The notes below the pieces were generated by a model. It was not told the DNA's origin. It made no database searches and worked only from the letters and a program-made list of their open reading frames with translations. 64,000 nucleotides of DNA. Origin: an uncultured Gammaproteobacteria bacterium (lineage in GTDB: Bacteria; Patescibacteriota; Patescibacteriia; UBA9934). The translations under genes and the position numbers were made by a program. Position 1 is the stretch's first letter. Every line of letters starts with the position of its first letter. Below are positions 7,842-62,879 of this stretch, piece after piece. The stretch is taken from the NCBI GenBank assembly GCA_964452565.1, contig CAYVLY010000001.1:386897-450896 (forward strand). The letters are read 5' to 3'.

Positions 7842-7938
7842 AATTTATAAAGGTTATAAAGGTGATCAGAGGTGATAAAAGGTATTAAACCTTTCATCAC
7901 TTTTTATTCCTCTATCACTTTTAATCACTTTTGTTATT
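7842..7938 (-). promoter_or_regulatory. GTGAT/ATCAC repeat module (R2) upstream of the TSP3-family gene 7155..7841
   Basis: Coding strand: AAAAGTGATTAAAAGTGATAGAGGAATAAAAAGTGATGAAAGGT-TTAAT-ACCTTTTATCACCTCTGATCACCTTTATAACCTTTATAAATT-ATG. Contains a 12-bp hairpin with one G.U pair and shares the ATCACCTTTATAACCTTT block with R1. Confidence 0.5.
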
Positions 7939-8850
7939 TTACCTCAGTGGATCATATCCTCCAATCACCTCTGTGCCATCCTGGTATCCATCATTATCTG
8001 TATCTGAATCTGCTGGATCTGTTCCATGCTCAAATACCTCATCATAATCTAGTAATCCATCATCATCTGAATCTGTATCTCGATCGCTAGTTCCATAATA
8101 ATCCTCTTCATCACCGTCTAATTCATCAAAATCCCTGTCTCCTGGCCCAACCATCTCTAAACAAGCATATTTGTAATCTCGGATTCCAACTAAATAACAT
8201 GGGGCCGGATCACGTGTTTCAATTGCTTCTGCGATTCTCGCCCCGTATTCACATTGCGCATCAGATATAATTTCATTGTCGCAATTACCTTCGATAATTG
8301 CATTCAAAGCCCATAACGCACGACAATTATCTACTTTTTCTGAATCTGAATAATCCTCGCAGTCCTCATAGCCGTGATCTTCACCAAGTGTCTGGGTCAC
8401 AATAGCATCATTACAACTATTCTTTTTATCTTGATCTGCGATACCTTTGCAGTCATTGATATCTAAAGATGTAAGGGCAGATAATGTTGCGCAAGAATCA
8501 TAGTCCTCCCCCTCAAGCTCATCACAATAACTAATGTCTCCGGTTTGCTGAGCAAGCCTAGGAGCAGCGCTTGCAATACATTTATCTACATCATCCTCGC
8601 TTTGACAAGATTCTATATATAGCCTTGTATTGTTTTCAACGGTCTTATCTCCACCATTAAAGAATAGGCCAATGACAAATACTAGAAACCAAATTGCCAA
8701 TACAACCGCCACAATGGCTACGACAATCTTAATCACAAGCCCAGACTTCGCGCGTATCTTATCTTTCAAGCTTACAACCTTTGTACCCTCTTCATCCAAC
8801 TCGTACCAATCAACCTTACTTTCATCAAATTGTTTTTGTTTGTCTTGCAT
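7939..8850 (-). CDS. single-pass membrane protein with Cys-rich ectodomain and C-terminal bacterial TSP3-like Ca-binding repeats
   Basis: TM segment LVIKIVVAIVAVVLAIWFLVFVIGLFF; C-terminus DRDTDSDDDGLLDYDEVFEHGTDPADSDTDNDGYQDGTEVIGGYDPLR. Confidence 0.6.
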   Translation of the reverse strand: MQDKQKQFDESKVDWYELDEEGTKVVSLKDKIRAKSGLVIKIVVAIVAVVLAIWFLVFVIGLFFNGGDKTVENNTRLYIESCQSEDDVDKCIASAAPRLAQQTGDISYCDELEGEDYDSCATLSALTSLDINDCKGIADQDKKNSCNDAIVTQTLGEDHGYEDCEDYSDSEKVDNCRALWALNAIIEGNCDNEIISDAQCEYGARIAEAIETRDPAPCYLVGIRDYKYACLEMVGPGDRDFDELDGDEEDYYGTSDRDTDSDDDGLLDYDEVFEHGTDPADSDTDNDGYQDGTEVIGGYDPLR

Positions 8851-24600: not shown

Positions 24601-25793
24601 CCAGAAGTAGCAATTGACGCCTTATCAAAATTCCAAGTGTCAGAACCATTACCATCCCACATGAAAGTACCACTGTTATGATTAGAAACACCTCCAGCAG
24701 TATGGGTCCAACTGCCTGCAATAAATGTTGTACCAGTTGTTGCATTAAAAGTTCCATCTGTAATAATCACATCATTTACATCTAATGTTCCTGTATTTCC
24801 ATTTAATGTACCTCCAGATATATTTAAATCATCTGCCACCTCCAATTCATATGCGCCAACATTCAAACTTCCATTAGTAATAGTTAAATCTAGCCCACCA
24901 TAATTCAAAATACAATCCGAAACTAAATTAACAGTTGGTGCATTAGTTACAGTTCCAATAGTTGTATGTGAATCCCATTCATCTGTATATCCTGTTAAAT
25001 CAAAAGTTTGTGTCCCTGTTCCAGTAAATGTCAGAGCGGCATCAGTAAGATTAAAGGCATCCCAAGGTCCTACAGTGACATTACCCTGCACCTCTATACC
25101 ACCACCGTTAAACCACCTTCCATCATAAAAAGTCGCATTACCGTTTATATATAGGGTGTCTCCTGAAAGATTAACATAGGAGCCGGAGTCACTGGTGCTA
25201 TCATAAGTAAAATTATTAAACACTCCAGAGGTAGGAATCCCGGCTTTATCAAAATTAAAGGTTTGTCTATAACCAGTATGTTTGACTGTTCCTGAACCTG
25301 CATTCCACACTCCTCCAGCTGTATGTGTCCAGTTTCCAGTAAAAGTGAGCGTCCCTGACGTACCATTAAATGTACCACCTGAAATTGTAACACCTCCGCT
25401 TATTGTAATATCTTGACTTGCTCCAGTGAATGTCCCATCTGCTTGATCATAATGTGATGAACCAATTGTTAAACTTCTAGCCTGTGTAATGGTCCCATCA
25501 TAACCACTATTTATATCAATTCCAGCAACAGACCCTGCAAATGAAGCGTCAATTGTTGAATCATTGTCAGAAGTATTATCAAAAGTAGCAACATCACTTG
25601 CTCCTGGTGGTGAATCGGTAGACCAGTTCAAGCCAGTTGACCAGTTTGTATCAACTCCTCCGCCACCATCCCAAGTGACTACTGCTGCATGAGCTTGATT
25701 GGCACTCCAAAAGGCTGCAAGTAGCACAAATAATGCAATAATAGAAATATTGCAAATCAGCAAGCCAAGCGATCTTGTCTTAATATATTTCAT
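21648..25793 (-). CDS. large secreted/anchored protein with parallel beta-helix-like ~215-aa tandem repeats and C-terminal FN3-like domains
   Basis: Likely start MKYIKTRSLGLLICNISIIALFVLLAAF (signal/anchor) at 25793; the ORF-track start at 25856 lies inside the terminator repeat. Repeats NISGGTLNGNTGTLDVNDVIITDGTFNATTGTTF occur; two copies are nucleotide-identical over ~400 nt. FN3-like TTATFTWTAATDSNFNHYEIWI. Stop TGA at 21648..21650. Confidence 0.8.
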   Translation of the reverse strand: MKYIKTRSLGLLICNISIIALFVLLAAFWSANQAHAAVVTWDGGGGVDTNWSTGLNWSTDSPPGASDVATFDNTSDNDSTIDASFAGSVAGIDINSGYDGTITQARSLTIGSSHYDQADGTFTGASQDITISGGVTISGGTFNGTSGTLTFTGNWTHTAGGVWNAGSGTVKHTGYRQTFNFDKAGIPTSGVFNNFTYDSTSDSGSYVNLSGDTLYINGNATFYDGRWFNGGGIEVQGNVTVGPWDAFNLTDAALTFTGTGTQTFDLTGYTDEWDSHTTIGTVTNAPTVNLVSDCILNYGGLDLTITNGSLNVGAYELEVADDLNISGGTLNGNTGTLDVNDVIITDGTFNATTGTTFIAGSWTHTAGGVSNHNSGTFMWDGNGSDTWNFDKASIATSGVFNDVTFDCSGTGVVCGGGSNYVYLGSGDTLYVEGDLLMSDGRVITGTIEAQGNVTIESNWYSNNTSDTPLVFSSSGTQIFDLTGGEALFNAHVTIGTGSAAPTVNLASDLIMNSSGQDLTLTDGSLNVGAYELEVADDLNISGGTLNGNTGTLDVNDVIITDGTFNATTGTTFIAGSWTHTAGGVSNHNSGTFMWDGNGSDTWNFDKASIATSGVFNDVTFDCSGTGVVCGGGSNYVYLGSGDTLYVEGDLLMSDGRTILGTIEAQGDVTIESNWYSYDKNDSVLTLAGSSAQTFDLTGAEALYDGHIKIGTTTSTPTVNLASDLTVNDSEQDLTVVEGELNINGYDLTVSGWSGDFVVEDGGTFAWRGTETLTLDDTVPTLNSGSTVKYVSSTGTVAMQDWAYQSLEIATTGGAIAQLGANESIVGNLTVSAGTFDVNDYTMTIAGNTVISGGTMKTGTNINTFGDAGGDTVTISSGELQIESNDTTSDIVKTANTWTNSGGTITYNAATTESTSLLSALSPYNNLTINSSGSTYTLDEAIDVNNTLTITAGTLDTSDGDNYAITVGGDWANSGTFTPRSGTVTLDDVSKTTTISGTTSFNNLTSTTASKAIVFTASTTTTVSGTLTLTGGDAALITITSSSPATTWLLNVSGTSSVDYVNVTDSDASGGNTITHAVSPSRSTNGGNNTNWGFNVAPTVSTVTATQGTDGTGDVTITFIMDDADDDDTLEALVEYDIGGGWTKATVSETGAEASATYGDPAVENDDTYQVGNASGYITSSSGANTVSVVWESATDEAAADLSTAQVRITPYDGTAAGSTASKTSITVDNVDPASLASFARSSATTTTATFTWTAATDSNFNHYEIWIDTSQSDVQGRTSATEWDDSDDTDLTTVGTATTTITGLSKQTTYYTKIWAIDDFGNETTLDDISFTTASSGSTPTTSSSPEIGSLEGGADSISSSSTSTGTCSEGLNPGEDIALS
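23836..24876 (-). repeat. near-perfect intragenic tandem duplication (period 645 nt; about 396 nt identical: 23836..24231 = 24481..24876)
   Basis: The identical 77-aa reverse-frame ORFs 23879..24112 and 24524..24757 in the ORF track show the duplication. The identical nucleotide strings were read directly. Confidence 0.85.
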
Positions 25794-25843
25794 GATCTTA
25801 TTGTTTCTATATTGTATCAAGCTACTATTTATAAAAGAAACAT

Positions 25844-25883
25844 ATTGTGGACACAAAAAGCCCCCGATTTCTTAGGGGCTTTT
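25844..25883 (-). terminator. 40-nt repeated double-hairpin terminator module (copy 2), downstream of yqeY
   Basis: Identical to 20803..20842. Confidence 0.6.
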
Positions 25884-26950: not shown

Positions 26951-27237
26951 GTCCCCAGCCAATTTTTCCCAGCTAATCTTAAACTCAGGCCTGTCACGAG
27001 CACGTCCAGGTTTATCCTCGGGCAGGAGAACGGAATTGCATTTTGCGTGACATTTATCCATATAAACAAATGGAGCTCAAAATGCCCGTTCGTATGTACC
27101 GAGGTATACCTGGACAGCGCAGTGAGGCCAAGCAGTTTCTTTTCCCCATTTCTTTGCTGCTTCAAAGAAATGGGGCCAGGGGTTAGGGGCAGGATGCCCC
27201 ATAACAAAACAGGGCCTTGCGGCCTTGTTTTATTTTT
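26951..27237 (+). ncRNA. copy 1 of an about 240-nt structured repeat family (candidate sRNA or MITE) with 3' rho-independent terminator
   Basis: Shares >85% identity with 46210..46489 and a core with 61947..62167. Internal hairpins CCCCATTTCTTTG-N7-CAAAGAAATGGGG and GGGGCA-GGA-TGCCCC. Terminator ACAGGGCC-TTGC-GGCCTTGT plus TTTTATTTTT. Confidence 0.5.
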
Positions 27238-31596: not shown

Positions 31597-33084
31597 ATGA
31601 GCGACGAGCATAGCGTTGATTTTCTCAAAAAGAAGTACCAGATGGTCCCAACTCAAAAGAGCACAAAGCGAAAGCGCAAGGCTCTCAAAGTGTTTGGGGC
31701 GCTTTTTGTTGTTACAGCTATCTGCGGCGTTCTTTTTTCTTACAATCTTTCCCGCGAGTATGACGACGAGGCTGTTGAGTATGAGAGCTTCTCACTCTTC
31801 TCTTCTTTACGTAATCTTGTTAGTTCAGGAGATAAGGAGTTGACCGGTGAAGATGATGACCGCATAAACTTTTTACTTCTTGGAGTTGGAGGATACGGAC
31901 ATGCCGGGCCTGAGCTTTCTGACACCATAATGTTTGCAAGTTACAAACCTTCAACAAGTGATATTGGTTTGCTCTCGATTCCTAGAGACCTAGCCGTGCC
32001 TATTCCTGGATATGGCTACCAAAAGATCAACAGTATAAATGCGTATGGTGAGATGGAAGATCCTGGATCTGGTCCTGAGTGGTCATCTGAGGTAATTGGC
32101 GATCTTCTTGATCAGCAGATTCACTACTACGTGAAGGTTGACTTCAATGGATTTGTAGAAATGATTGATGCAATTGGCGGAATCGATGTGTATGTTGATA
32201 GGTCATTTACAGACTACAGCTACCCCACTGACGACGATCTTATTCAAACAGTTTCGTTTGATGCTGGATGGACACACATGGACGGTGAAACCGCCTTGCA
32301 GTTTGCCCGCTCAAGACACGGAGATAATGGCGAAGGGTCTGACTTTGCTCGCGCTGAGCGCCAACAAAAAATCTTGCTTGCTGTAAAAGATGAACTTCTC
32401 TCAGCATCAACCTTTCTGAACCCGTCAAAGCTGAGCAACCTAGTTGAGACTTTCCAGGACAATGTTGAAACAAACATGTCATTCTGGGAGTTGATGAAAA
32501 TGACACGCTACATTCCAGATATCGACACTGAGAATATCTACACAACAGTTCTTGAAACTGGATATGACAGTCCTCTGTATTCTACGATGATTAATGGAGC
32601 GTATGTTCTTCTACCAAAGAAAGATGACTGGACACCAATTCAGGAGATGGCGCAAAACATTTTTGATGAATCTGGTTCTGCAAGTTATGCAACTGACAGT
32701 GTAGATAGCGATTCTGACACAAGTGCGGAGATCTCATCAACGATCCTGGAGATACAAAACGGAACAAGCGTTGTAGGCCTTGCCTTTCAAACCTCGCAGA
32801 TGCTCTCTGGAACAAACTTTTCTGTAGAAAACATCGGAAACGCAGACTCTCAAGATTATGAAACAACTATAATCTACGACCTTACCGGCGGAGAAAAACC
32901 AGACGAACTGGAAGTATTAACAAACTTTTTAGAAGCCGATGTTGCAATGACAACATCGGGTTGGATCTTTTCTGAAACAGTCACTCCTCGTGAGCTAACA
33001 ATTGATACTCCAGAGGATACTGATGAAAACATTGACTTTTTGATAATTTTGGGGCAAAACGCTACGAGCTTGGTACTGCAATAA
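31597..33084 (+). CDS. LytR-CpsA-Psr (LCP) family cell-envelope protein with C-terminal LytR_C-like domain
   Basis: N-terminal TM; FLLLGVGGYGHAGPELSDTIMFASY LCP core; extended -10 TGCTAGAAT just upstream. Confidence 0.8.
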   Translation: MSDEHSVDFLKKKYQMVPTQKSTKRKRKALKVFGALFVVTAICGVLFSYNLSREYDDEAVEYESFSLFSSLRNLVSSGDKELTGEDDDRINFLLLGVGGYGHAGPELSDTIMFASYKPSTSDIGLLSIPRDLAVPIPGYGYQKINSINAYGEMEDPGSGPEWSSEVIGDLLDQQIHYYVKVDFNGFVEMIDAIGGIDVYVDRSFTDYSYPTDDDLIQTVSFDAGWTHMDGETALQFARSRHGDNGEGSDFARAERQQKILLAVKDELLSASTFLNPSKLSNLVETFQDNVETNMSFWELMKMTRYIPDIDTENIYTTVLETGYDSPLYSTMINGAYVLLPKKDDWTPIQEMAQNIFDESGSASYATDSVDSDSDTSAEISSTILEIQNGTSVVGLAFQTSQMLSGTNFSVENIGNADSQDYETTIIYDLTGGEKPDELEVLTNFLEADVAMTTSGWIFSETVTPRELTIDTPEDTDENIDFLIILGQNATSLVLQ

Positions 33085-33170
33085 AGTGATTAAAGGTTAA
33101 AAAGGTGATCAAAAGTGATTAACAACTTTTCACACCTCTCATCACCTTTCATCACTTCTTAATCACCTCT
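33085..33170 (+). promoter_or_regulatory. GTGAT/ATCAC repeat module (R3) upstream of der
   Basis: AAAGTGATTAAAGGTTAAAAAGGTGATCAAAAGTGATTAACAACTTTTCACACCTCTCATCACCTTTCATCACTTCTTAATCACCTCT-ATG. Same architecture as R1 and R2: 3x GTGAT, then 3x ATCAC. AAAGGTGAT...ATCACCTTT is a perfect 9-bp pairing. Confidence 0.5.
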
Positions 33171-34541: not shown

Positions 34542-34550
34542 TACAGAACA

Positions 34551-34642
34551 CAGATCCCCTCCAGCTCCCCCCTCGAAAGGGGGAGGGTCTAGATTCGAAA
34601 TTAGACCCCTCCTTGCGAAGGAGGGGGTAGGGGAGGTCTGTG
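34551..34642. repeat. dual-hairpin REP/RPE-like element copy A (der-pth spacer)
   Basis: CTCCCCCCTCGAAAGGGGGAG hairpin, then GGTCTAGATTCGAAATTAGACC, then CCCCTCCTTGCGAAGGAGGGG hairpin. Family members at 53535, 54409, 56494 and 61069. Confidence 0.7.
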
Positions 34643-35988: not shown

Positions 35989-36034
35989 TCTTTGTTCATT
36001 CAACCAGGCCCAGGGGCGCAAACCAGAGAACAAC

Positions 36035-36556
36035 ATGCCTGACAGAGTGGAAAAACTCGCCAGTCTAATGGGAATGAAAGGAACCGTAGTTGATGGGAAG
36101 GAAATCTTCGCCTGTCGGCTCGGTTCAGAAGGCGACACCCTCGTCATCGCGTACTACGACGACGCGCGGCACATCTGGAAAATCCGGTTCTTGCCGGGAA
36201 TCCCCATCGTACCTGCGCAAGCGCTGGTGCACGGTGGCTACAGGTGGAACGAGCGAGGCTATGGATATAAGTTCTACAACTGGCCCAAAACCTCAATCCA
36301 GATCGAAGATGAACCCCACGAAGTTGGTCAACGCGAATTTATGTGTTCGATTGGTGCTTTCACAGCTGAACGAACCGTGGATGCCTTCGTGGCGCTCCAA
36401 CTCGTCTTCCGCGTAAGCTTCCTTGCGCCATACGATCGCCCCCTGACAGACACACAGGTCAGAGAAGCAATGCATCTAATGACGATCGTGGCCAATGACT
36501 GTCATTTTGTCGCCCCACCTGGGTATTACCCTGGCGACGAAGACCTCGAAAGCTAA
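36035..36556 (+). CDS. hypothetical protein in ~60% GC island (cassette 2), 173 aa from first ATG downstream of the promoter
   Basis: In-frame ATG at 36035 (M26 of the track ORF 35960..36556); GC-rich codon usage unlike the host genes. Confidence 0.5.
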   Translation: MPDRVEKLASLMGMKGTVVDGKEIFACRLGSEGDTLVIAYYDDARHIWKIRFLPGIPIVPAQALVHGGYRWNERGYGYKFYNWPKTSIQIEDEPHEVGQREFMCSIGAFTAERTVDAFVALQLVFRVSFLAPYDRPLTDTQVREAMHLMTIVANDCHFVAPPGYYPGDEDLES

Positions 36557-36576
36557 ACCGTACCTCACCCCCACCC

Positions 36577-36614
36577 CGGACCCCCGCGTCCTTGCGTGGG
36601 GGTTCTGCTTTTTT
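36577..36614 (+). terminator. GC-hairpin terminator of cassette 2 (shared module TCACCCCCACCCC...CGTGGGGGTTCTGCTTTTTT)
   Basis: ACCCCCGCG-TCCTTG-CGTGGGGGT hairpin (one G.U pair) plus TCTGCTTTTTT. About 80% identical to 37757..37810. Confidence 0.65.
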
Positions 36615-36682
36615 GAGCCAATACCGGCTCTTTTTTGACCAAACTACCAACGTTACACGTTGGTAGTTTTTGCATAATTATA

Positions 36683-36711
36683 TTGACAATTTGGCTAATT
36701 TATGCTATATT
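36683..36711 (+). promoter_or_regulatory. near-consensus sigma70 promoter of high-GC cassette 3 (TTGACA-N17-TATATT)
   Basis: TTGACA 36683..36688, 17-nt spacer ATTTGGCTAATTTATGC, TATATT 36706..36711. Similar to the cassette 2 promoter (TTGACAAT...TTTATGCTAWAT). Confidence 0.55.
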
Positions 36712-36778
36712 TTTTTGTTTCTAGCGCAACTCCGCGCAGAACATATCGTGCATCCCGCACGTGAAGAGGGAGACAAGA

Positions 36779-37747
36779 ATGACTCACAGGCAAATCAAGG
36801 TGTGGCGCCAGCCCACCTCTGTGAGCGTCCAGCTCGAAGCCACCCGCAGCGCCGAGCACGAATTGAGACAGCTCATCATAGCCATACAGCAAGCGCTGGG
36901 GGTCCAGGACTGGCACAACTTCGGACGCATGCTCCAGACCTGCTGCAACGTCTTCATGCCAGAACGCCACACCCCGATGGGCTTCGGCGTACGCAGACGT
37001 TCACCAGCCCAGATCCTCAAGCGCAAGATGGAGTGGGTGGACATCGAAGAGTTCAAGGCCTTCGGCCTCAAGATCGAAGACGAAACCTTCACAGCCACCC
37101 CCCGCGAACCCGTGACCATCACGATCGGACGCACCTTCACTGGGGGTCACGAGTTCAACAGCGATGGACACAGCATCGTCTTCACGGTCGCAAGCGACTC
37201 CGAGGTCGAGATCATCGCTGAGGTCCAGGACAGAGTCGGGAGCGTCGATAGAGGCCGCCACATGGGCAGCTACCACTTGCAGCTTGGCGAAACCACCTAC
37301 ACATCTGTGCTCTACGTCCAGGCCTGGACTCAGAGACACTGGGCCTTCAGCAAGGGCAGCAAGGAACGCCTGGGAGACCGCCTGCAGGAACCGCCCTACG
37401 ACTGCTTCCGCCGAGATGCTCCGATCTATCAGGTCGAACCGCTCGAAGACGAGGAGCTCGTGGTCTACGAGAGCTCTGGGGCCCACAATGTAGGTCTGGA
37501 AGTGCCCTTCTCGCGCACGGCACCGAGACACCCGGATCGTCAGGTCTTCGCCTCGGTCGGACCGTTCTCGTTGGCACTGCGCAAGGGCGAACGCCGCGGA
37601 CGCAGCCCAGCTCGCGATCGCATCGTGGTCTTCCGCGATGACAAACTGCCCATCGTCCCACCCGAAGTTGACGATGAGGAATGCGACGATAGCGGCTGGG
37701 ACTGCGACGAATTCGACTTCGCTGACCGGTACGACGCAGAGTACTAG
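36779..37747 (+). CDS. hypothetical protein in ~60% GC island (cassette 3), 322 aa
   Basis: RBS GAGGGAGA 6 nt before the ATG at 36779; GC-rich; antisense ORFs in this stretch are treated as GC artefacts. Confidence 0.55.
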   Translation: MTHRQIKVWRQPTSVSVQLEATRSAEHELRQLIIAIQQALGVQDWHNFGRMLQTCCNVFMPERHTPMGFGVRRRSPAQILKRKMEWVDIEEFKAFGLKIEDETFTATPREPVTITIGRTFTGGHEFNSDGHSIVFTVASDSEVEIIAEVQDRVGSVDRGRHMGSYHLQLGETTYTSVLYVQAWTQRHWAFSKGSKERLGDRLQEPPYDCFRRDAPIYQVEPLEDEELVVYESSGAHNVGLEVPFSRTAPRHPDRQVFASVGPFSLALRKGERRGRSPARDRIVVFRDDKLPIVPPEVDDEECDDSGWDCDEFDFADRYDAEY

Positions 37748-37756
37748 CCCCACCAC

Positions 37757-37810
37757 TCACCCCCACCCAAGGACCCCCTCGTCCTCGGCGTGGGGGTTCT
37801 GCTTTTTTGT
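37757..37810 (+). terminator. GC-hairpin terminator of cassette 3 (second copy of shared module)
   Basis: TCACCCCCACCCAAGGACCCCCTCGTCCTCGGCGTGGGGGTTCTGCTTTTTTG. Confidence 0.65.
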
Positions 37811-37817
37811 TCAAACC

Positions 37818-37878
37818 TGGGGCCCACCACGAGCCTGCCTGCCAGCAGGCAGGGGTTTCAGGGGGATGAAGTGCCCCC
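37818..37878 (+). repeat. internally deleted fragment of the about 240-nt structured repeat family (retains both termini)
   Basis: GGGCCCACCACGAGC (5' end as in copy 3), then palindrome CCTGCCTGCCAGCAGGCAGG, then GGGGGATGAAGTGCCCCC (3' hairpin as in copy 3, GGGGGACGGAGTGCCCCC). Confidence 0.5.
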
Positions 37879-37954
37879 AATGAAACACGTTTCACACAAC
37901 AACCCTTGACACACCTAACAAAATCAGATTTTTCGTGCATGATAAAATATAAGT

Positions 37955-39055
37955 ATGACTCAAGGAGATGAGAGCTTGGCGTATTTGATGGCCTTAAATG
38001 AATTTCCACAGTTTGGTCCGCGCAGGATGCAGCGGTTGTTTAAGTATTTTGATTCAGCCCAGTCAATCTTCGAATCAGGCACATCAGATCTTCAAAGTGC
38101 AGGGATCTCTGAGAATATTGCAAAAGAGTTCATTGAATTCCGTAAATCAATCAATCCGCAGGAACTACTTGAGCTTATTCGATCGAATCAGGTCTCGACC
38201 TTATCAATCTTCGACCCTAACTACCCCACCCTACTCAAAGAGATATTTGATCCTCCGACATTGCTATATGTAAAAGGTAAGCTTCCAGATCTTACTGATC
38301 GAAAACTTCTTGGAATCGTTGGTTCGCGCAAAGTAAGTCCATATGGCATGCAGGCTGCAAAAGACCTAACTCGAAACATAGCAAGGGCTGGAATCATTAC
38401 TGTAAGCGGGCTTGCGTATGGAGTTGATCAAATCGTACATCGATCAACAATCGACGCAGGCGGATCAACGATCGCAGTTCTAGGCTTTGGCATTCTGCAT
38501 GAATCAACGCCGCGTGAACAAAAGATGCAAAGATACATAGTTGAGAATGGCGGATGTTTAATCAGTGAATTCCCGCTGATGATGCATGGTGCCAAACAAA
38601 ACTTCCCAGTCCGCAACCGAATCATCTCAGGGCTAAGCCACGGGACCCTTGTGGTTGAGGCGGCGATAAAATCCGGCTCACTAATAACAGCCCGATCGGC
38701 AACTGATCAAAACCGTGAGGTTTTTGCTGTTCCAGGTCCGATTAACTCTCCAGCTTCAGAAGGTACAAATAATCTAATCAAAAATGGCGCACATACGGTC
38801 ACTTCGATCGAAGATATACTTGAACCACTTGAAATCGACCGAATCCGATCAAACTCAATCAAAAAAACCACCCCAAAGGGCGACACTCCGCAGGAAGATA
38901 AAATCCTGTCGATCTTATCAAAACAACCAGTCCACATCGACGACATCACCCGCAAATCCAACCTTCCTCCCCACACCGTCGCAAGCGTAATTTCGATGCT
39001 TGAATTGAAAGGACTTGCCCAAAACGTCGGAGCGCAATACTATACGTACGTATGA
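37955..39055 (+). CDS. dprA: DNA processing protein DprA (Smf)
   Basis: Rossmann-like core GIVGSRKVSPYGMQAAKDLTRNIARAGIITVSGLAYGVDQIVH; 366 aa with C-terminal winged-helix-like tail. Confidence 0.85.
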   Translation: MTQGDESLAYLMALNEFPQFGPRRMQRLFKYFDSAQSIFESGTSDLQSAGISENIAKEFIEFRKSINPQELLELIRSNQVSTLSIFDPNYPTLLKEIFDPPTLLYVKGKLPDLTDRKLLGIVGSRKVSPYGMQAAKDLTRNIARAGIITVSGLAYGVDQIVHRSTIDAGGSTIAVLGFGILHESTPREQKMQRYIVENGGCLISEFPLMMHGAKQNFPVRNRIISGLSHGTLVVEAAIKSGSLITARSATDQNREVFAVPGPINSPASEGTNNLIKNGAHTVTSIEDILEPLEIDRIRSNSIKKTTPKGDTPQEDKILSILSKQPVHIDDITRKSNLPPHTVASVISMLELKGLAQNVGAQYYTYV

Positions 39056-42794: not shown

Positions 42795-44636
42795 CTATTT
42801 TACTTCTGACCGATCTATCCCGCCCCTTGTTGGCGCTGTGCCTGGCTTTGTTGTCTTTGCCTGCTTCCCGGCTCCAACACCAAGCTTACTGGCATCAACA
42901 GCAGTATCACCAAACTTAAATCCAGTCTTCATTGACTTTCTTTCTGCCAGCTCTTCTGGAGTCTGAACCTCTGGTGCTTCTGGTGCCGGCGTCTCTGCTG
43001 GCGCAGCCGCTTCTGGCCCTCTAGTCTTTAACAGTTCCGCTTCTGCCTTAATTTCTCTATCTAGTTGCTTTTTGCGCTCTGCTATTTCTTCAAGTCCAGC
43101 CTCGGCCTCGTCCAATCGTGCTTTGAGTGCATCGTGATCCGCTTTACTAAGCTCTGTATTTTCTAGCTGCTCCTCGAGACCTTTAATCGTTTCTGTTAAT
43201 GATGCTTCATCCTCAACAATCTTATTAAGCCTTTCAGAAAATTCATCTTGTTTTCCCGAGCCTTCAAGAGCAGCAATCCTATCACTAAACTGCTGTTGTT
43301 CATTCTTCTTCTCCTTAGCCTTTTCTTTCTTTAACGTCATCTTACCCATTTTCTTAATCTGTTTCCTACGTTCTTCATCTTCCTTCGCAAGCTTCTCATC
43401 GAGCTTCTTAATAGCCTCACCCGGCTCTCCAAACTTTGCTTCTTCCTGTCCTGTGATTTGTTTTAAGAATGACCAAAGACCAAGCGCCATTCGTGGAATC
43501 GTGGGAAGTGATCCAAGAATTGGCTTTCTACCTGCTATAAACTGACCCAACACACCAACTGTACCCATAGATGCAGCGGCAGCAGCCCATCCAACCTTTT
43601 TGACTTTACTATATTCTTCTTCATCAACCTCTTCCTTTGCAGCTTGCTCCTGCTGTTCCATACCAGCACCAAACTCTTGCCCCGCACCCCGTCTAGCTGC
43701 TTCGTTTATTTCCGTTCCTGGAACTTGCCCGCGATCGCCACCTCTATCACGACCTAAGGCATCAGCTGCTGCACCAGCAGCAGCACCAACTGCTGCTTCA
43801 ACGCCAGCACCAGCCTGGCTATCATCTGGTGGTTCTATTCCACCATCAGCCCCAGGTGCTTCAATGACATCAATAGCATTATCTAACGCCTGATCCCAGC
43901 GCTGCCTTGTCTCGCGATTTGATTCTTCTACTTCTGGGGGCAGTCCTGCGCCACCGCCAGTTAACTCAAATGTTTTGCTTTTTACCAACTTTATTACGTT
44001 TGCCAAATCCTCATAATCCACGCTGTCATCTAATTGATCGACATTCTCGAGCATTAGCAACATTTGAATTGCATCCTTTGTATCTTCATCCGCTCTTCTC
44101 TCCATCTCACGCAGAGTGTCCAAAAAATCTGGATTTTTAACAGCTTCCAGTACGGACTGGTAATATTCTGTATTATCACCTGGTGGTTCAACGTCTGCGT
44201 CTGGTGGTTCAACGTCTGCGTCTGGTGGTTCAACGTCTGCGTCTGGTGGTTGAATCTCTTGCCCTGTACCAGTGTCATCAGCAGGCGGCTCAACATCAGC
44301 AGGCGGCTCAACATCAGCAGGCGGCTCAACATCAGCAGGCGGCTCAACTCCACCTTCTCGATCCATACGATCAGCAACAGCATCGCCAAGATCGCCGATT
44401 GCCTCAGCCTCAGCACCTGCTCTAGCTTGTGCGCGCAACTCTTCCTCAGCAGCAAAGCGGGCCGCAGCTTCCTCATCTAGTTCAACACGAGCCGCCTCCT
44501 CAGCCGCAGCCTCTGCAGCAAGCTGCTCTGGAGATACTTCTGGCTGCTCTGCAGCTGCCTCAGGAGTGCCTTCAACTCCCTCTTGTTGACCTTCTTTTTT
44601 GTCTGGTTCATTTACCATATGTATACATAATATCAA
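42795..44636 (-). CDS. acidic low-complexity coiled-coil protein with tandem VEPPAD / DADVEPP repeats and one predicted TM segment
   Basis: 613-aa ORF; probable start MVNEPDKK at 44618. 4x VEPPAD (18-nt period, 44272..44345) and 3-4x DADVEPP (21-nt period, 44188..44270). Lys/Glu-rich coiled-coil C-terminal half. Confidence 0.55.
   Translation of the reverse strand: MILCIHMVNEPDKKEGQQEGVEGTPEAAAEQPEVSPEQLAAEAAAEEAARVELDEEAAARFAAEEELRAQARAGAEAEAIGDLGDAVADRMDREGGVEPPADVEPPADVEPPADVEPPADDTGTGQEIQPPDADVEPPDADVEPPDADVEPPGDNTEYYQSVLEAVKNPDFLDTLREMERRADEDTKDAIQMLLMLENVDQLDDSVDYEDLANVIKLVKSKTFELTGGGAGLPPEVEESNRETRQRWDQALDNAIDVIEAPGADGGIEPPDDSQAGAGVEAAVGAAAGAAADALGRDRGGDRGQVPGTEINEAARRGAGQEFGAGMEQQEQAAKEEVDEEEYSKVKKVGWAAAAASMGTVGVLGQFIAGRKPILGSLPTIPRMALGLWSFLKQITGQEEAKFGEPGEAIKKLDEKLAKEDEERRKQIKKMGKMTLKKEKAKEKKNEQQQFSDRIAALEGSGKQDEFSERLNKIVEDEASLTETIKGLEEQLENTELSKADHDALKARLDEAEAGLEEIAERKKQLDREIKAEAELLKTRGPEAAAPAETPAPEAPEVQTPEELAERKSMKTGFKFGDTAVDASKLGVGAGKQAKTTKPGTAPTRGGIDRSEVK
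44188..44345 (-). repeat. in-frame tandem coding repeats (21-nt x about 4 and 18-nt x 4)
   Basis: TGGTGGTTCAACGTCTGCGTC units and ATCAGCAGGCGGCTCAAC units, read directly. Confidence 0.9.
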
Positions 44637-46209: not shown

Positions 46210-46489
46210 GTCCCCAGCCAACCTTCTAACCTCGGGCCTGTCACGAGCACGTTCATGCTCATCCCCTGGCAGGAAGACGGAATAGCATTTTGAGTCCAAT
46301 TTATCCATATATACAAATTGGATCGCCAAAATGCCCGTCTGTATGCCTGGGGTATGCATGGACAGCGCAGTGAGGCCAAGCAGTTTCTTTTCCCCATTTC
46401 TTTGCTGCTACAAAGAAATGGGGCCAAGGGTTAGGGGTTAGGGGCAGGATGCCCCAATAACAAAAGACCGGCGATCTGCCGGTCTTTTG
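46210..46489 (+). ncRNA. copy 2 of the about 240-nt structured repeat family with 3' terminator
   Basis: Near-identical to copy 1, including the GTCCCCAGCC start. Hairpins CCCCATTTCTTTG-N7-CAAAGAAATGGGG and TCCAATTT...AAATTGGA. Terminator GACCGGC-GATCT-GCCGGTC plus TTTT. Confidence 0.5.
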
Positions 46490-46493
46490 CGAT

Positions 46494-46521
46494 GGATCCC
46501 CGCCTTTGCGGGGATGACAAG
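46494..46521. repeat. solo GGATCCCCGC-CTTT-GCGGGGATGACAA hairpin (same motif as the MITE-like family X ends), downstream of parB
   Basis: Perfect 8-bp stem; motif GGATyCC..GGrATGACAA shared with 59337..59440 and 62792..62879. Confidence 0.5.
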
Positions 46522-48271: not shown

Positions 48272-48348
<77 letters not shown>

Positions 48349-48471: not shown

Positions 48472-48741
48472 ATGCATTTTGTTTATGTTCTGTTCTGTAA
48501 AGATCGGAGATTATATATCGGCTACACAAAAAACTTGCAGGAACGCTTTACCGCGCATCAAGGTGGTAAAGTACGATCAACGCGCCACCGACTACCTATT
48601 AAGCTCATCTATTATGAGCATTATTGCAATAGCAAGGATGCTAGAGCTCGAGAAATATACCTCAAGAGTGGTGGAGGCCACCATCACTTTAAAAGACAGC
48701 ACAAGAACCAACTTATAAGACTGGGTTATAAGCATCTCTAA
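48472..48741 (+). CDS. GIY-YIG nuclease domain protein (small standalone)
   Basis: MHFVYVLFCKDRRLYIGYTKNLQERFTAHQ matches the GIY-YIG core (Y-V-Y..G.T..L..R...H). Confidence 0.7.
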   Translation: MHFVYVLFCKDRRLYIGYTKNLQERFTAHQGGKVRSTRHRLPIKLIYYEHYCNSKDARAREIYLKSGGGHHHFKRQHKNQLIRLGYKHL

Positions 48742-51270: not shown

Positions 51271-54200
51271 TTATTTTACAATCCTCACAACCCCATCATT
51301 TGCATTGACTTCGACTTCATCGCCGTCTTTCAAAACTTGTGTCGCAACCTTGGATCCGATGATGCATGGCTTCTTTAATTCACGGGCCACGATCGCAGCG
51401 TGACAGATTACTCCCCCTTCGTCTGTAACAATCGCTGCGGCTTTTTTGATTGCTGGCAAGAAGTCAGGTGTAGTCATTGGAGAAACTAGGATCTCACCTT
51501 TTCGAAACTCACCGATCTGATCCTTACACTTTAGAACTTTAACAGTTCCCTGGACTCTTCCCTTGAATGCAACCTGCCCCTCTATACTTTGAACATCAGC
51601 GGGCACCTCTTCAAACTCGAAGTTAAGATCTGAATTACTCTGAATAAACTCATCTATCGTTATAGCATTAGCGACCTTAGGGGGCACCAAGACAAAGTGC
51701 TGCTTACGATCCTCCAAGACTGACTTATCGGGCACACTGAAAACCTCATCCAACAAGATCGAAGTTACCAAACGAGATAGTTCTGGATACAGTTCGATCA
51801 ATGTCGATCGAATTACTTCATCAGATCGATCAAAAAACTCATCCTTGTCCCTCCAAGCTCGCGCCTTTTCCTGCATCTCCTTAGGCAACCTTTTATCAAA
51901 CCCTGCATGATAGAGGATCACCAGGTCAGCCATCATTGCATAGAGCAGGTTGCTAAATTGATCAAATGCATTGGAATCAACAAGTGGCTTTTTCCAAAAT
52001 CCCCTCATAATATCTAGGTTTCGACCGTATCTCTCAAGCACCTTATCGAAATAATCTGGATTCTCTTCATGCTTCTTAACTACCCCTCCCATAAGATCCC
52101 ACATCACAGCCTCATTCTCCCAAACCTCTACGACGCCATCGTTGATGTAAAAAACATAAGGCGACTTCTGACCTATTTCAATCCCATGATACTTCTCTAA
52201 ACCTTCATCATTGGCATAAAACCAGGCCTGCTGGATAATAATCGAAAAATCCCGCGTATAAGCTTTTCGATAAATATCCCGAGGTTCTTTTTTAGACTCA
52301 AGCAGCTTGACAGTACCTTGATCTGCATTGACTTCTATGATGTCGCCACTACTAAGTACACTTGTTGCACACTTGGTTCCAACGACACACGGCTTCTTAA
52401 GCTCACGAGACACAATCGCGGCGTGGCTGAGCATTCCTCCAGCATCAGTTACAATCGCGCCAGCCTTTTTCATGAGTGGAACATAGTTTGGATCTGTCAT
52501 TCCAGTAACAAGGATCTCCCCTTCTTCTATTTTGGCGTCTTCAAAATTTGTAATGATTCTACACTTACCTGTTACGATTCCCTCGTACGCAGTTGTTCCT
52601 TTCAAAATCCCAGTATCGAGATTCTTCCAACCCTGTTTTATTCTGTCTACTTCATCAGCATTGAGAATCAGAGTATTGCCTGGGGTTAAATATACCCCGG
52701 ACTTTATATATCGTTGTTTTGCCTCGTCGAGAGATACGCTACAAGCTACCAGCTCATCGATGGTAAGCGTAGAGTAAGCTCGGTCATTGCCGCCCGTGAA
52801 GTGCTTAACCATTAAATTGATCAAATCTTCTGCATCTTTATAAATCGTCTCTGAATAGCGCCTTGCCTTTTCAAACTTTTTAGCCGATGCGCTGTAAAGC
52901 CTATCTGGTAAAAAGTTTATAACAGCTTTGGTCGAAATCTGATACGCACCATACGCACTGTACACTTCTTTCAATTTCGCTAATGTATCCTGATCGGTCA
53001 AATCTCCACTCAGATTTTTAATTAAAGCGGTAAGCCCATCTGCAGTCTTTACAAATGAATCACACCACCTATCAACAACAGCCTCGTCATCAATCACCAA
53101 CTGTGCCAAGTGGCTTCCATGCGATTCATACGAATCCATTGGAAGGTAGGCTGACATTATTCCGTTCTTAATGACTAGTAGCACAGAATCAAGCGAAGAA
53201 CCAAAAAATTCTTGAGGCTTGCTAAAATATACACCCTCACCCAGCGACACTTGCAAAAGTGAAAACGGTCCCTCCCAATCTTTCTGCCAGTTGCGACTAG
53301 CGATTTTTGATACGTTGCTTTTTTCTTTATCAAACGACCCCAACGTAGTAATCGGCCGGCTTTGGGTGATGTAAAACTTGCCATTCTCATAAGCCCATTC
53401 GATATCGCAAGGAAAGCCATAGTGGTCTTCAATCTTTTTTATCAGTTCAGCCAGTTCAATGATCTGAGATTCTGACAAGACTTGTGCCTCGGCTTCGTCA
53501 GATGCTAACTCGATCCATTGATTATTAGACGTAGAGACCTCCCCTATCCCCTCCTTCGTAAGGAAGGGTCTAGCCACTCGACTCTCCCCCTTACGAAGGG
53601 GGAGTTGGAGGGGGTCAGACCCAAGAACTAGCTTCTTATTTTGAACATTCACGTTGACATCAAGAATCTCAAGCGTATCTTTTTGCACAACATAAGCATC
53701 TGGTGTTATTGATCCTGATACTATTGCCTCGCCTAAACCAAACCCGGCCTCGATAATCATTTGGTTTCTGTCTTGAGTCACAGGATGAACCGAGAATGCG
53801 ATTCCTGAGGTTTCTGACTGGATCATCTTTTGCACAACAACAGCGACTGATATGTGATGATTTTCTAATCCTTGCTCAAATCGATAATAGATTGCTCGAG
53901 GAGTAAACAAAGATGCCCAGCACCTCTGGACGTCCCTCAAAAGTCTTTCCTGAGTTGTATTCAAAAAGGTATCCAGCTGCCCTGCCCATGCCGCAGATGC
54001 GCTATCCTCTGCTGTTGCGCTTGATCGGACCGCGACGTAGTCGGCTCCTAATTGATCAAACTGCGATTGAACTTCCTTCGCAATATCATCAGGCATCACA
54101 GCGCTCATAATCAAACCCTGGATCTTCTCAGAGGCCTCATCAATAGTGTGAATAGCTTCAGTATTCACAGTATCAAGGATTGATGCAATCTCAACTCCAA

Positions 54201-54375: not shown

Positions 54376-54408
54376 TGTATCACACAGTGCTACTTCTATA
54401 AATATACA

Positions 54409-54446
54409 GGCAACCCCCTCTATCTCCCCCTTGGGAAGGGGGAGGA
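54409..54446. repeat. REP-like element copy C (single hairpin CTCCCCCTT-GGG-AAGGGGGAG with GGCAACCCCCTCTAT leader)
   Basis: Identical leader and hairpin to copy D at 56494. Confidence 0.7.
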
Positions 54447-54447
54447 C

Positions 54448-56493: not shown

Positions 56494-56583
56494 GGCAACC
56501 CCCTCTATCTCCCCCTTGGGAAGGGGGAGGACCTTGATCTAGATCCCCCCTCCTTCCCAAGGAGGGGCTGGGGGTGGTTGCCT
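56494..56583. repeat. dual-hairpin REP/RPE-like element copy D in the scpA-scpB spacer, abutting the scpA stop
   Basis: GGCAACC...CTCCCCCTTGGGAAGGGGGAG...GATCTAGATC...CCCCTCCTTCCCAAGGAGGGG...GGTGGTTGCC, an outer inverted repeat enclosing the two hairpins. Confidence 0.7.
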
Positions 56584-57330
56584 TTAAACCCTTTCTATCA
56601 TTATTTCTTCATCTTTTTGCTTAACCTTTACAATCTGTCGGCGCATCATTTCCAAAAGTGCCAAGAAGCTTACTACAACCTCTACCCTGCTCTTTGCACC
56701 TGCTACTACATCCTTGAAGCTCATCTTTGCACGTGTGCTAATGGCTCCCTTGAGTTCATCTAACCGCTCCTCGACTGATTTGACGCGTTCCATTGAAATC
56801 TCTCGCAAAGCAAAGAATGGCTCCATGCGCTTGAGTAACGATCGAAACGCATGATGTAGGTTGATTAACGTAATATTCTCAGCTGGGTAAAATGCGTCTT
56901 CTGTTTCAATGATCTTCTTTGTATACGGACGTAGGTAAGCCTTCTCAGGATTTTCAAACTTCTCCTCAAGTCTATCTGCCGCTTCTTTGAAAAGTCGATA
57001 CAAACGTAGCTGATCCTCAAGGTCCTCAATCTTTTCATCCTCATCATCGATCCGTAAGTATGGTAGGAGCTCGCGACTCTTAAGATAAATCAAACGCGAT
57101 GCTACAACTAGAAAGTCAGCCATCTCTTCTGGCAAGACTTGCTCACTTTCGAGCCGCTCGAGATACTCATCTGTAACTTCTGCAAGGTTAACATCTTTGA
57201 TCTCAAGCTCGTGTTTATCTAATAACTCCAAAAGAAGCCCTAAGGGGCCACTAAACGCCTCTTGCTTGATTTCCAACTGGATCATGCATGCATTATATCG
57301 CAGATTTACAGAATACAGAACCCAGAACAC
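56584..57330 (-). CDS. scpA: segregation and condensation protein A
   Basis: ScpA-like FSGPLGLLLELLDKHELEI...; likely start MIQLEIKQ at 57286. Confidence 0.85.
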   Translation of the reverse strand: MFWVLYSVNLRYNACMIQLEIKQEAFSGPLGLLLELLDKHELEIKDVNLAEVTDEYLERLESEQVLPEEMADFLVVASRLIYLKSRELLPYLRIDDEDEKIEDLEDQLRLYRLFKEAADRLEEKFENPEKAYLRPYTKKIIETEDAFYPAENITLINLHHAFRSLLKRMEPFFALREISMERVKSVEERLDELKGAISTRAKMSFKDVVAGAKSRVEVVVSFLALLEMMRRQIVKVKQKDEEIMIERV

Positions 57331-59336: not shown

Positions 59337-59440
59337 TTGTCATTCCCGCGAAGGCGGGAATCCATCAGTTATCGAATTCGATAAACGACCTGCCTGCCGG
59401 CAGGCAGGTGGATCCCGGCTCTACGGCCGGGATGACAATC
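59337..59440. mobile_element. MITE-like element X1: two inverted copies of hairpin motif GGATyCCCGC-loop-GCGGGrATGACAA flanking internal palindromes
   Basis: TTGTCATTCCCGCGAAGGCGGGAATCCATC, then GTTATCGAATTCGATAAAC, then CCTGCCTGCCGGCAGGCAGG, then GGATCCCGGCTCTACGGCCGGGATGACAATC. Ends at the recO stop. Confidence 0.5.
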
Positions 59441-61068: not shown

Positions 61069-61147
61069 CGCCTCTCCCCCTTCCCAAGGGGGAGGGTCTA
61101 GATCTAGTCTCCCCTCCTTACGAAGGAGGGGTTGGGGGAGGTTTCTC
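61069..61147. repeat. dual-hairpin REP/RPE-like element copy E (between map and the downstream gene)
   Basis: CTCCCCCTTCCCAAGGGGGAG, then GGTCTAGATCTAGTCT, then CCCCTCCTTACGAAGGAGGGG. Confidence 0.7.
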
Positions 61148-61934: not shown

Positions 61935-61946
61935 AAGCTCTTTCTT

Positions 61947-62167
61947 GGGCCACCACGAGCACGTTCAGGTTTATCCTCGGGCAGGAGAACGGAATTGCAT
62001 TTTGATGTCCAATTTCTCCATAGATACAAATTGGATCTCCAAAATGCCCGTTCGTATGCCTGAGGTATACCTGGACGAGCGCAGTATGGCCACGCCCTTT
62101 CTTTTCCATATTTCTTTGGGCGAGCAAAGAAATATGGCCTGGGGGCTACGGGGGACGGAGTGCCCCC
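61947..62167 (+). ncRNA. copy 3 of the about 240-nt structured repeat family (more diverged, with compensatory substitutions)
   Basis: Hairpin CCATATTTCTTTG-N6-CAAAGAAATATGG compares with CCCCATTTCTTTG...CAAAGAAATGGGG in copies 1 and 2; both stem sides changed. TCCAATTT...AAATTGGA; 3' hairpin GGGGGACGGAGTGCCCCC. Confidence 0.5.
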
Positions 62168-62791: not shown

Positions 62792-62879
62792 CTTGTCACC
62801 CCCGACTCCGATCGGGGGTCCATCGTTTATCGAACTCGATAGTTGATGGATCCCGGCTCTACGGCCGGGATGGCACATC
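62792..62879. mobile_element. MITE-like element X2 (second member of family X)
   Basis: TTGTCACCCCCGACTCCGATCGGGGGTCCATC, then GTTTATCGAACTCGATAG, then GGATCCCGGCTCTACGGCCGGGATGGCACATC. The left hairpin sequence differs from X1 but keeps its position and pairing; the right hairpin is identical to X1. Confidence 0.5.

Follow-up and report, generated by a model that had tools for sequence, protein, structure and literature searches.

The DNA hairpins considered here resemble two sets of short repeats that have been described under different names. The first consists of the CGTC-tagged repetitive extragenic palindrome (REP) families CGTC-1 to -4 (Di Nocera, De Gregorio and Rocco 2013, BMC Genomics 14:522, PMC3733652). 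In these families the tag may also read TGTC or CCTC, the stems of 8-9 bp nearly always open with A-T/T-A, the loops are of 4-5 nt, with exceptions, and the tails are CCA. For the most part these repeats occur as "HH" dimers, that is, head to head with the tags outside; heterodimers occur, and the spacers of the dimers measure 20-100 bp, are often conserved and sometimes bear a stem-loop. They lie less than 20 bp past an upstream open reading frame (ORF), between unidirectional or convergent genes, and number from tens to thousands of copies per genome. The second set comes from Neisseria, where dRS3 repeats and the NIMEs (dRS3-RS-dRS3 units) were described by Bentley et al. (2007, PMC1797815). 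In 2025 dRS3 was recast as the 28-nt NTS (CGTCATTCCCGCGMAVGCGGGAATCYRG) and generalised to an "Ssn-related motif" (SRM), with the search pattern HGTCWYN(0-2)YYVSBRHN(0-5)WNVSBRGN(0-2)RNCYNB (Chenal et al. 2025, Nat Commun 16:2388, PMC11893778). We compare with these systems two palindromic elements, X1 and X2, and a solo hairpin, all from a 64,000-nt stretch of a Patescibacteria genome of the candidate phyla radiation (CPR; contig CAYVLY010000001.1, positions 386,897 to 450,896, forward strand), referred to below as the window. An earlier note on this DNA had presented X1 and X2 as a second palindromic element family. That novelty disappears on comparison, since the hairpin unit very probably belongs to the CGTC-tagged REP/NTS-SRM family and the layout is that of the known head-to-head dimer. 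The X elements are head-to-head heterodimers, tags outside, of CGTC/TGTC-tagged REPs and not a new kind of element.

Coordinates and sequences of the units were read directly from the window, the X1 and X2 spans being measured from tag to tag:

59338-59437, no strand assigned: X1, two TGTC-tagged REP/SRM hairpins, head to head, with the tags at the outer ends
59338-59364, plus strand: X1 left unit, with TGTC at 59338-41, stem ATTCCCGC at 59342-49, loop GAAG, stem GCGGGAAT at 59354-61 and tail CCA at 59362-64
59369-59384, no strand assigned: X1 spacer core, TTATCGAATTCGATAA, a perfect 16-bp palindrome that forms a small central hairpin
59389-59408, no strand assigned: X1 nested palindrome, CCTGCCTGCCGGCAGGCAGG, perfect, 20 nt
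59409-59437, minus strand: X1 right unit, reading on the plus strand TGG at 59409-11, stem ATCCCGGC at 59412-19, loop TCTACG, stem GCCGGGAT at 59426-33 and tag GACA at 59434-37
62794-62877, no strand assigned: X2, a head-to-head dimer of tagged hairpins
62794-62822, plus strand: X2 left unit, with TGTC at 62794-97, ACCCCCGA / CTCCGA / TCGGGGGT and tail CCA at 62820-22; it matches the SRM pattern
62827-62842, no strand assigned: X2 spacer core, TTATCGAACTCGATAG, between CCATC and GATGG arms
62847-62877, minus strand: X2 right unit, the same hairpin as in X1 right, matching over GGATCCCGGCTCTACGGCCGGGATG
46493-46519, minus strand: solo unit, TGTC / ATCCCCGC-AAAG-GCGGGGAT / CCA

The module common to these hairpins is 5'-TGTC, an 8-bp G+C stem whose opening pairs are A-T/T-A, a loop of 4-6 nt and CCATC-3'. 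X1-left is a canonical CGTC-1/NTS-type hairpin and includes a strict dRS3 (ATTCCC-N8-GGGAAT). X1-right, read on the minus strand, is TGTC / ATCCCGGC-CGTAGA-GCCGGGAT / CCA (by segment on the plus strand, GGAT-CCCGGC-TCTACG-GCCGGG-ATGACA) and fails the SRM pattern at a single stem position. The sequences and layout quoted in the earlier note agreed with our reading nearly letter for letter, and the solo hairpin was present as described. Two of its statements hold in part. The right hairpins of X1 and X2 had been called identical; the hairpin is indeed the same, but the right terminus of X2 is degenerate, with the tag TGTGCC instead of TGTC (ATGGCACA instead of ATGACAA on the plus strand). A shared core was also claimed, and both elements contain it, but GTTTATCGAAyTCGATA as such is found on the plus strand in X2 and on the minus strand in X1. 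The asymmetric form falls on opposite strands because the core is itself a near-palindrome; on the plus strand X1 and X2 alike carry TTATCGAAYTCGATA.

Comparison with the published repeats carries the assignment of the unit. At 26 of 28 positions X1-left agrees with the NTS consensus, and a BLAST search of PLSDB placed it at 242 sites in 45 records. It matched multicopy intergenic hairpins of Azospirillum and Sphingobium at 28 of 28 positions, and the copies of N. gonorrhoeae, Legionella and Novosphingobium at 96% identity; matches in several copies were also obtained in N. gonorrhoeae, Photobacterium, Legionella and Novosphingobium, as well as in a Rickettsia endosymbiont. The whole of X2 had no BLAST match among plasmids, where relatives were found for the X1 left hairpin only. 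Expectations for motif counts were taken from dinucleotide shuffles, 100 of them for the SRM pattern. Three of the five window units match that pattern (46492, minus strand; 59338 and 62794, plus strand) where 0.3 matches are expected, and one further match lies in locus L001, introduced below. Within the window the string GGATYCCC..GGGRATGACA occurs twice and the 20-nt palindrome also twice, each against 0.00 in shuffles, and the X core with up to 2 mismatches occurs 5 times against 0.33. One such core match, TTATCGTTTTCGATA at 27242-56, has 2 mismatches and lies within the 3' end of a minus-strand coding sequence; it was dismissed as chance. Searched against Rfam at gathering thresholds, the window as a whole gave three tRNAs only; near X1 and the solo unit, E-value thresholds brought up nothing beyond sub-threshold noise.

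The X core was then sought in other sequence collections. Among genome contigs it was found in two metagenome-assembled genomes (MAGs) only, both Uhrbacteria. In JABHCP01 (L001) an X with the same core lies between rmlC- and rmlD-like genes, and in DMOG01 (L002/L015) an X with the same core lies between dihydrofolate reductase and deaminase genes. Metagenome contigs yielded the L002 locus three times and a single decayed copy (L016), and neither the core pattern nor the right-hairpin string matched viral contigs. RecO homologues and both genome matches to X are labelled Candidatus Uhrbacteria / Patescibacteria. The tags are outside in all four dimers (X1, X2, L001 and L002), and in each the conserved spacer palindrome, the self-complementary and A+T-rich TTATCGAAyTCGATAr, folds into a hairpin of its own. 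The spacers are 24-48 nt long and of one conserved type. A CCCGGC-type hairpin is found in X1-right, X2-right and L002-left and a CCCCGA-type hairpin in X2-left and L001-right; X2-left and L001-right are near-identical, with the same loop and differences at two stem positions. Since hairpin types are thus combined differently between genomes, the units behave as modules.

The five window units and the four units from these two genomes were aligned (n=9, about 6 hairpin types). In the 8-bp stem 98.6% of cells are paired, and double-sided changes are present at 4 of the 8 stem pairs, in 12 cells. Neither the observed pairing nor the covariation score was reached in any of 500 shuffles, and sliding the stem partners by 1-3 columns lowered pairing to 18-56%. 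The compensatory variation proposed in the earlier note is therefore confirmed. Stem pair 1 is A-T in 8 of 9 units and pair 2 is T-A in 7, the remaining two having C-G. The tag is TGTC in 8 of 9, X2-right (TGTGCC) being the exception, and the tail is CCA in 8 and CTA in one. The columns without variation are the tag's G, C (of GTC) and A, the C directly after the stem (9/9) and three of the stem pairs. Loops are of 4 nt in X1-left and the solo unit, of 6 nt in the CCCGGC, CCCCGA and CCCTGG types, and of 35 nt in the L002 right unit. As single-stranded DNA (ssDNA), either strand folds into 3 local hairpins in X2 and 4 in X1, where the nested palindrome is included. For L001 and the window elements the DNA folding z-scores lie between -4.4 and -6.4, and for L002 the score is -2.4.

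These results bear on the notion that the hairpins are chance structures or ordinary terminators, an outcome that the earlier note had considered as unremarkable terminators with chance similarity. The small number of units, five in the 64-kb window, is compatible with it. It is contradicted, and so ruled out, by all of the shuffle controls, and also by the 28/28 match to repeats of other phyla, by the recurrence at other loci in other genomes and by the lack of T-tails; we accord it a negligible probability.

It was of interest to compare the spacers that hold X1 and X2 with the corresponding spacers of related genomes. X1 was found to be identical in an independent Logan assembly (SRR8146441), on a 4-kb contig with an exact RecO match. 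In the list below, L026-28 denotes the closest relatives; the X2 spacer of L021 is not comparable, its upstream genes being different.

RecO-to-synthetase spacer, window: 187 nt, with X1
RecO-to-synthetase spacer, L026-28 (RecO 87% identical): 91 nt, no X
RecO-to-synthetase spacer, L021 (RecO 79%): 141 nt, with an unrelated hairpin
RecO-to-synthetase spacer, L024 (RecO 69%, 652-kb contig): 43 nt
Spacer holding X2, window: 152 nt
Spacer holding X2, L026-28: 274 nt of other hairpins
Spacer holding X2, L024: 3 nt

The alignment with L026-28 picks up directly after the X1 site, and the downstream sequence AATCTTGAGCAAATC...GGTAAACT is kept. No SRM-type hairpin was found in about 102 kb from seven related lineages. 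Because the closest relatives have no X in the syntenic spacers, the X elements are insertions. Thus insertion polymorphism is present, with X missing from the same spacers in close relatives and recurring at non-orthologous loci in other Uhrbacteria. These operon spacers are hot spots, with different palindromic elements in each lineage. A further small hairpin family, (GAG)ATCCC-TCCTATCGTC-GGGAT-GGGAT, was observed in the same operon spacers of the relatives L021 (10780-10860 and 7740-7790) and L026 (around 740-780 and 1690-1730).

Such polymorphism would also be expected of a conventional MITE (a miniature transposable element bounded by inverted repeats), derived by deletion from a DDE-type insertion sequence (IS), in which the hairpins serve as terminal inverted repeats, and both the inverted ends TTGTCAT...ATGACAA and the decayed metagenome copy L016 fit this proposal. 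However, no target-site duplication was seen by eye at X1, X2, L001 or L002, nor in the comparison of filled and empty sites between the window and L026. The left and right ends differ in sequence yet keep their internal pairing, which a transposase-binding terminal repeat does not need, and a solo unit exists. Neither a parent IS nor a transposase was seen, and among the approximately 58 larger window ORFs scanned with Pfam there was no transposase, integrase or RAYT / Y1 domain. A MITE of this type is a highly improbable explanation. Of the MITE/REP label in the earlier note, then, the REP part stands, as dispersed palindromes that match a published superfamily, and the MITE part does not.

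The positions of the elements relative to genes are uniform. At 5/5 loci (X1, X2, the solo unit, L001 and L002) the upstream gene is co-oriented and the element starts 2-13 nt beyond its stop codon, so that the location at 3' gene ends that had been suggested is borne out. X1 is 2 nt from the RecO stop (59440-42, minus strand), and on its other side is a promoter-like TTGAGC-N17-TAAACT upstream of an Asn/Asp-type tRNA synthetase gene. A conserved 75-aa ORF ends (stop 62885-87, minus strand) 7 nt before X2, which is upstream of adk and is likewise followed by promoter-like sequence. The solo unit begins 8 nt past the ParB stop, in the sense orientation, and adjoins a bidirectional intrinsic terminator (46463-46490). 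In L001 and L002/L015, X lies 4-13 nt past a stop codon and 14-15 nt ahead of the next start. With the next gene so close, X must be co-transcribed at L001 and L002.

This arrangement would fit a role in RNA, in which a transcribed multi-hairpin fold at the 3' end would shield mRNA from 3' exonucleases or attenuate read-through into the following gene; roles of this sort have been proposed for REP/BIME and for many CGTC/GTAG REPs. It is the main alternative, and a non-exclusive one, since it fits the REP identity and competes solely with an ssDNA/nuclease mechanism. In its favor are the placement at all five loci just after the stop of a co-oriented gene, the co-transcription at L001 and L002, and RNA folds that are equivalent to the DNA folds and strong (-41 to -53 kcal/mol, z -4.0 to -5.4). 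Di Nocera et al. contend that a good many of these REPs undergo transcription and function as RNA (PMC3733652). Against it, a terminator scan found no T/U run after the hairpins on the transcribed strand, the minus strand at X1 and X2. The hairpins are therefore not intrinsic terminators, and the terminator role that had been entertained is not supported, the more so as promoter-like sequence follows X1 and X2. The unpaired TGTC and CCATC have no obvious use in RNA, and yet they are the determinants of ssDNA binding and cleavage by SsnA, the nuclease discussed below (PMC11893778). The one imperfect pair of the L001 right unit is G-T on the motif-sense strand and C-A in the mRNA sense, no Rfam family matches, and the same operons in relatives have spacers of 3-43 nt. 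On balance we consider an RNA role unlikely as the principal explanation.

Another possibility is that the 16-bp palindrome TTATCGAAyTCGATAr is a double-stranded operator for a dimeric DNA-binding protein and that the hairpins are passengers. The core is the best conserved segment across genomes, the stems being variable, and a 12-nt version of it, ATCGAATTCGAT, adjoins a different hairpin family in the relative L026. The flanking genes, however, are unrelated in function (recO/asnS, adk, rmlC/D and folA/deaminase), the core follows stop codons and is not at promoters, and the solo unit has no core. Conserved spacers are, moreover, already known for head-to-head REP dimers (PMC3733652). We regard the operator, like the MITE, as having very little probability.

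The identity of the unit with the SRM leads to a mechanistic proposal. SsnA, a GIY-YIG nuclease of the 94-aa type studied in four species, binds the hairpin only as ssDNA and in one orientation, does not bind RNA, and nicks a few nt upstream (PMC11893778). Mutagenesis showed that the 3 nt upstream of the palindrome are critical for cleavage and the C after the palindrome for binding, and in N. meningitidis SsnA lowers the integration of motif-bearing transforming DNA (PMC11893778). Ssn itself is encoded by a single-domain cd10448 GIY-YIG gene that is often flanked by the motif (PMC11893778). The nucleotides critical for SsnA coincide with invariant columns across the 9 aligned units. By analogy, whenever the DNA is single-stranded, as in transforming DNA entering the cell, the lagging-strand template or repair intermediates, each unit would fold. 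A small GIY-YIG nuclease of the Ssn type might then bind the folded unit, recognising the GTC tag, the stem and the C 3' of it, and would nick a few nt 5' of the tag. The motif being directional, an inverted pair presents one correctly oriented site on each strand, and an X element would be a strand-symmetric Ssn site with predicted cuts just outside both of its ends. We infer, from the homologous DNA motif, that an Ssn-type enzyme may be encoded in this genome, may act on these copies and may affect recombination or transformation. As a statement about this organism the nuclease mechanism is tentative and somewhat short of an even chance. The fuller account, in which X1 and X2 are CGTC/TGTC REP heterodimers inserted after stop codons and subject to an Ssn-type mechanism, is the best explanation overall and is, we think, rather probable.

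The following gene encodes the sole candidate hairpin nuclease in the window and is given as context, not as a demonstrated part of the system:

48472-48741, plus strand: GIY-YIG gene, 89 aa, a stand-alone single domain (Pfam E=4e-14), just past tRNA-Met (48272-48348)

Real Ssn sequences were retrieved from PLSDB with a consensus, which was used solely for that purpose. This yielded a 94-aa N. gonorrhoeae Ssn (Y6/Y17/E64) and an Aeromonas caviae homologue, and the same hairpin flanks both genes. Several observations weigh against the favored explanation. With tblastn, no canonical Ssn-type ORF (GFTxxYNV...REKQLKKWxRxWK) was found in the window or in L001/L002/L015. BLASTP revealed no similarity between the window protein and gonococcal SsnA; the annotated proteins that match it best are YazA/UPF0213 proteins, and its likeness to UPF0213/YazA is about equal to its likeness to Ssn. 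The window protein lacks the Ssn C-terminal signature, its gene has no flanking hairpins, and it falls in a separate large family (consensus ...YIGYTENLKKRLKEHNSGKVKSTKNRRPLKLIYYEAYLNKKDAKKREKYLKSGSGKK...; 379 clusters at 50% identity with E<=1e-10 and 5807 with E<=1e-3) that is distinct from both Ssn and UPF0213 and shows the signature in 0 of 150 representatives. A 67%-identical syntenic homologue stands beside parAB/relA in a relative without SRM-type hairpins, and four of the seven lineages in which such hairpins were absent have this type of GIY-YIG protein. With regard to the repeats themselves, the covariation rests on 9 units of about 6 hairpin types, and the structure was derived from these very sequences; furthermore, intrastrand templated repair can yield paired changes in DNA palindromes without selection. 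Two of the five window units fail the SRM pattern by one stem position or carry a degenerate tag, the 6-nt loops exceed the 4-5 nt typical of the CGTC families, and the five units are those visible within a 64-kb window of the genome.

The window GIY-YIG protein was rejected as the cognate nuclease, as BLASTP against SsnA, tblastn, the family profile and the contexts of four homologue groups gave no support. It is quite improbable that the TGTC hairpin dimers in the host-dependent, DNA-scavenging CPR bacteria are serviced by the abundant mini GIY-YIG family "REKYLKSGSG", which includes 48472-48741, and not by canonical Ssn. If this were true, hairpin-directed nicking of ssDNA would be a property of a second GIY-YIG family, and the head-to-head dimer, with its conserved palindromic spacer, would act on both strands alike as a "restriction" or processing site when ssDNA enters the cell.

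A different enzyme would be required if the X elements were REPINs mobilised by a RAYT (IS200/IS605-like). An inverted doublet of hairpin repeats is formally REPIN-like, and a second hairpin-dimer family with GTAG-like tags is present in the same window. The tag of X, however, is TGTC and not GTAG, and no Y1 transposase domain occurs among the ORFs scanned with Pfam. Di Nocera et al. report that a RAYT flanked by CGTC repeats was found in no species (PMC3733652). A REPIN origin is accordingly very improbable, if a little less so than a MITE or an operator.

The second hairpin-dimer family is an observation in its own right. Its members lie at 34550-34640, 53533-53616, 54405-54447, 56494-56586 and 61073-61146 and have the plan CTCCCCC-loop-GGGGGAG, a palindromic spacer of the GGTCTAGATCTAG type, and CCCCTCC-loop-GGAGGGG, with GTAG/TTGG/CTGG and GGGAGG outside. 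The family is also found in the closest relative (L026, around 1490-1800), beside the ATCGAATTCGAT palindrome. It looks like a set of GTAG-like-tagged REP head-to-head dimers and, if so, both tagged-REP superfamilies would coexist in one CPR genome.

The 20-nt palindrome of X1 is an exact insertion between GA and TGGAT of an arm that, by comparison with X2, L001 and L002, is otherwise conserved as ...TCGATAR-NN-GATGGAT.... Its removal leaves ...TCGATAA-AC-GATGGATCC..., the same as in X2 and the copies in other genomes. The 19/20 variant that had been reported elsewhere in the window was found again at 37834-37853, as CCTGCCTGCCAGCAGGCAGG, within a fragment (37818-37878) in which it joins both ends of another repeat family. 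That family, of about 210-240 nt (the ~240-nt family), has three copies (26980-27189, 46227-46437 and 61939-62151) with 64-95% identity over aligned blocks and no Rfam match; a bidirectional terminator follows each of copies 1 and 2. The spacer between adk and map is filled by copy 3; in L024 this spacer measures 3 nt, in L026 and L021 it holds other hairpins, and these differences among relatives imply that the ~240-nt family is also insertion-polymorphic. A rather improbable reading is that the mosaic of modules (X core, nested palindrome and its reuse in the ~240-nt family) reflects a templated mechanism for the insertion of perfect palindromes.

Pfam annotation of the window ORFs identified a housekeeping chromosome segment. 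The genes recognised include FtsZ/FtsA, NrdR, HisRS, Der, Pth, DprA, TopA, RelA/SpoT and ParAB, together with PPDK, ScpAB, the Asn/Asp-type tRNA synthetase, RecO, RuvX, Map and Adk. Several other features were recorded. A G+C island at 36000-38000 (56.5% against about 44% elsewhere) contains overlapping ORFs without Pfam match and ends at the palindrome-bearing fragment just upstream of dprA. Two very large minus-strand ORFs have internal repeats (8863-18837, 3324 aa; 21648-25856, 1402 aa), ORFs at 7155-8850 have TSP3 repeats, and a 605-aa ORF (18916-20733) has domains resembling the pilin of type IV secretion systems and Ig-like domains; the large repeat-bearing ORFs and their neighbors are probably surface or attachment proteins. 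Clusters of AAAGGTGAT / AAAGGTTAT-type motifs, in both orientations, occupy three intergenic regions (7039-7160, 7831-7909 and 33074-33164; repeat families D10, D18 and I3) and may represent a common promoter or operator architecture. Perfect in-frame tandem repeats of 21 nt and 18 nt lie at 44180-44365, within the Pfam-less ORF 42795-44636.

The finding opens no new class of element. Its interest lies partly in the host, because CPR bacteria are thought to depend on DNA uptake; in Neisseria a system of ssDNA hairpins and a nuclease modulates transformation, and such a system would be of interest in these organisms. The 28-nt identity of one unit with copies in Alphaproteobacteria points to either a very tightly constrained protein-DNA recognition code or horizontal spread. 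For annotation, units that are recognised need no longer be miscalled as spurious small ORFs or terminators, and they help to account for breaks in short-read assemblies of these genomes.

It remains to set the X elements beside each known system. As described in the available portion of the 2013 article, CGTC REPs share with the window units the tag variant, stem, tail, head-to-head dimers, structured and conserved spacer, and position less than 20 bp after an ORF. They differ in that the host here is CPR/Patescibacteria (Uhrbacteria-like), outside the five phyla listed there, so that a known repeat class is extended to this lineage; three hairpin types here have 6-nt loops and one L002 copy has a 35-nt loop; and neither the TTATCGAAyTCGATAr spacer palindrome nor the nested 20-nt palindrome has a counterpart in that portion of the description (PMC3733652). 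With the NTS/SRM-Ssn system the X units share the hairpin sequence, the directionality conferred by the 5' GTC and the 3' C, the intergenic sites and an occurrence in symbiont-like, host-dependent bacteria. Unlike that system, the sequence available here has no SRM-ssn-SRM cassette and no cd10448-type ssn gene, the density is low, with isolated dimers instead of large clusters, and the main text of the 2025 paper makes no mention of Patescibacteria (PMC11893778).

Formally, X is a minimal dRS3-RS-dRS3 unit, with G+C-rich hairpins flanking a spacer of lower G+C, and in this it resembles the NIMEs; those, however, are built into long arrays whose RS elements, about 50-150 bp in length, fall into more than 100 families, whereas the dimers here are isolated (PMC1797815). 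X1-left alone among the window units fits the strict dRS3 string, and the filamentous-phage or IS110-type recombinase context of NIMEs is lacking here. In N. gonorrhoeae (50 kb) the orientation of the units alternates, with tag-outside pairs separated by 49-127 nt, and in Photobacterium they form direct arrays. GTAG REPs and REPINs with their RAYTs also comprise small tagged hairpins, inverted doublets, dispersed intergenic insertion and recognition of an ssDNA hairpin by a dedicated nuclease; the tag is GTAG and not TGTC, the enzyme class is HUH-Y1 (RAYT) and not GIY-YIG, and no RAYT was found here. Bacterial MITEs such as Correia elements are likewise short, non-coding, palindromic and insertion-polymorphic, but X has neither a target-site duplication nor a parent IS, and each of its ends is an autonomous hairpin instead of a simple terminal repeat. 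As a whole, published work already covers the unit, its dimer architecture, its position close to genes and even the probable class of enzyme; what is new is the CPR/Patescibacteria host lineage, the specific conserved spacer palindrome and the nested and shared 20-nt palindrome.

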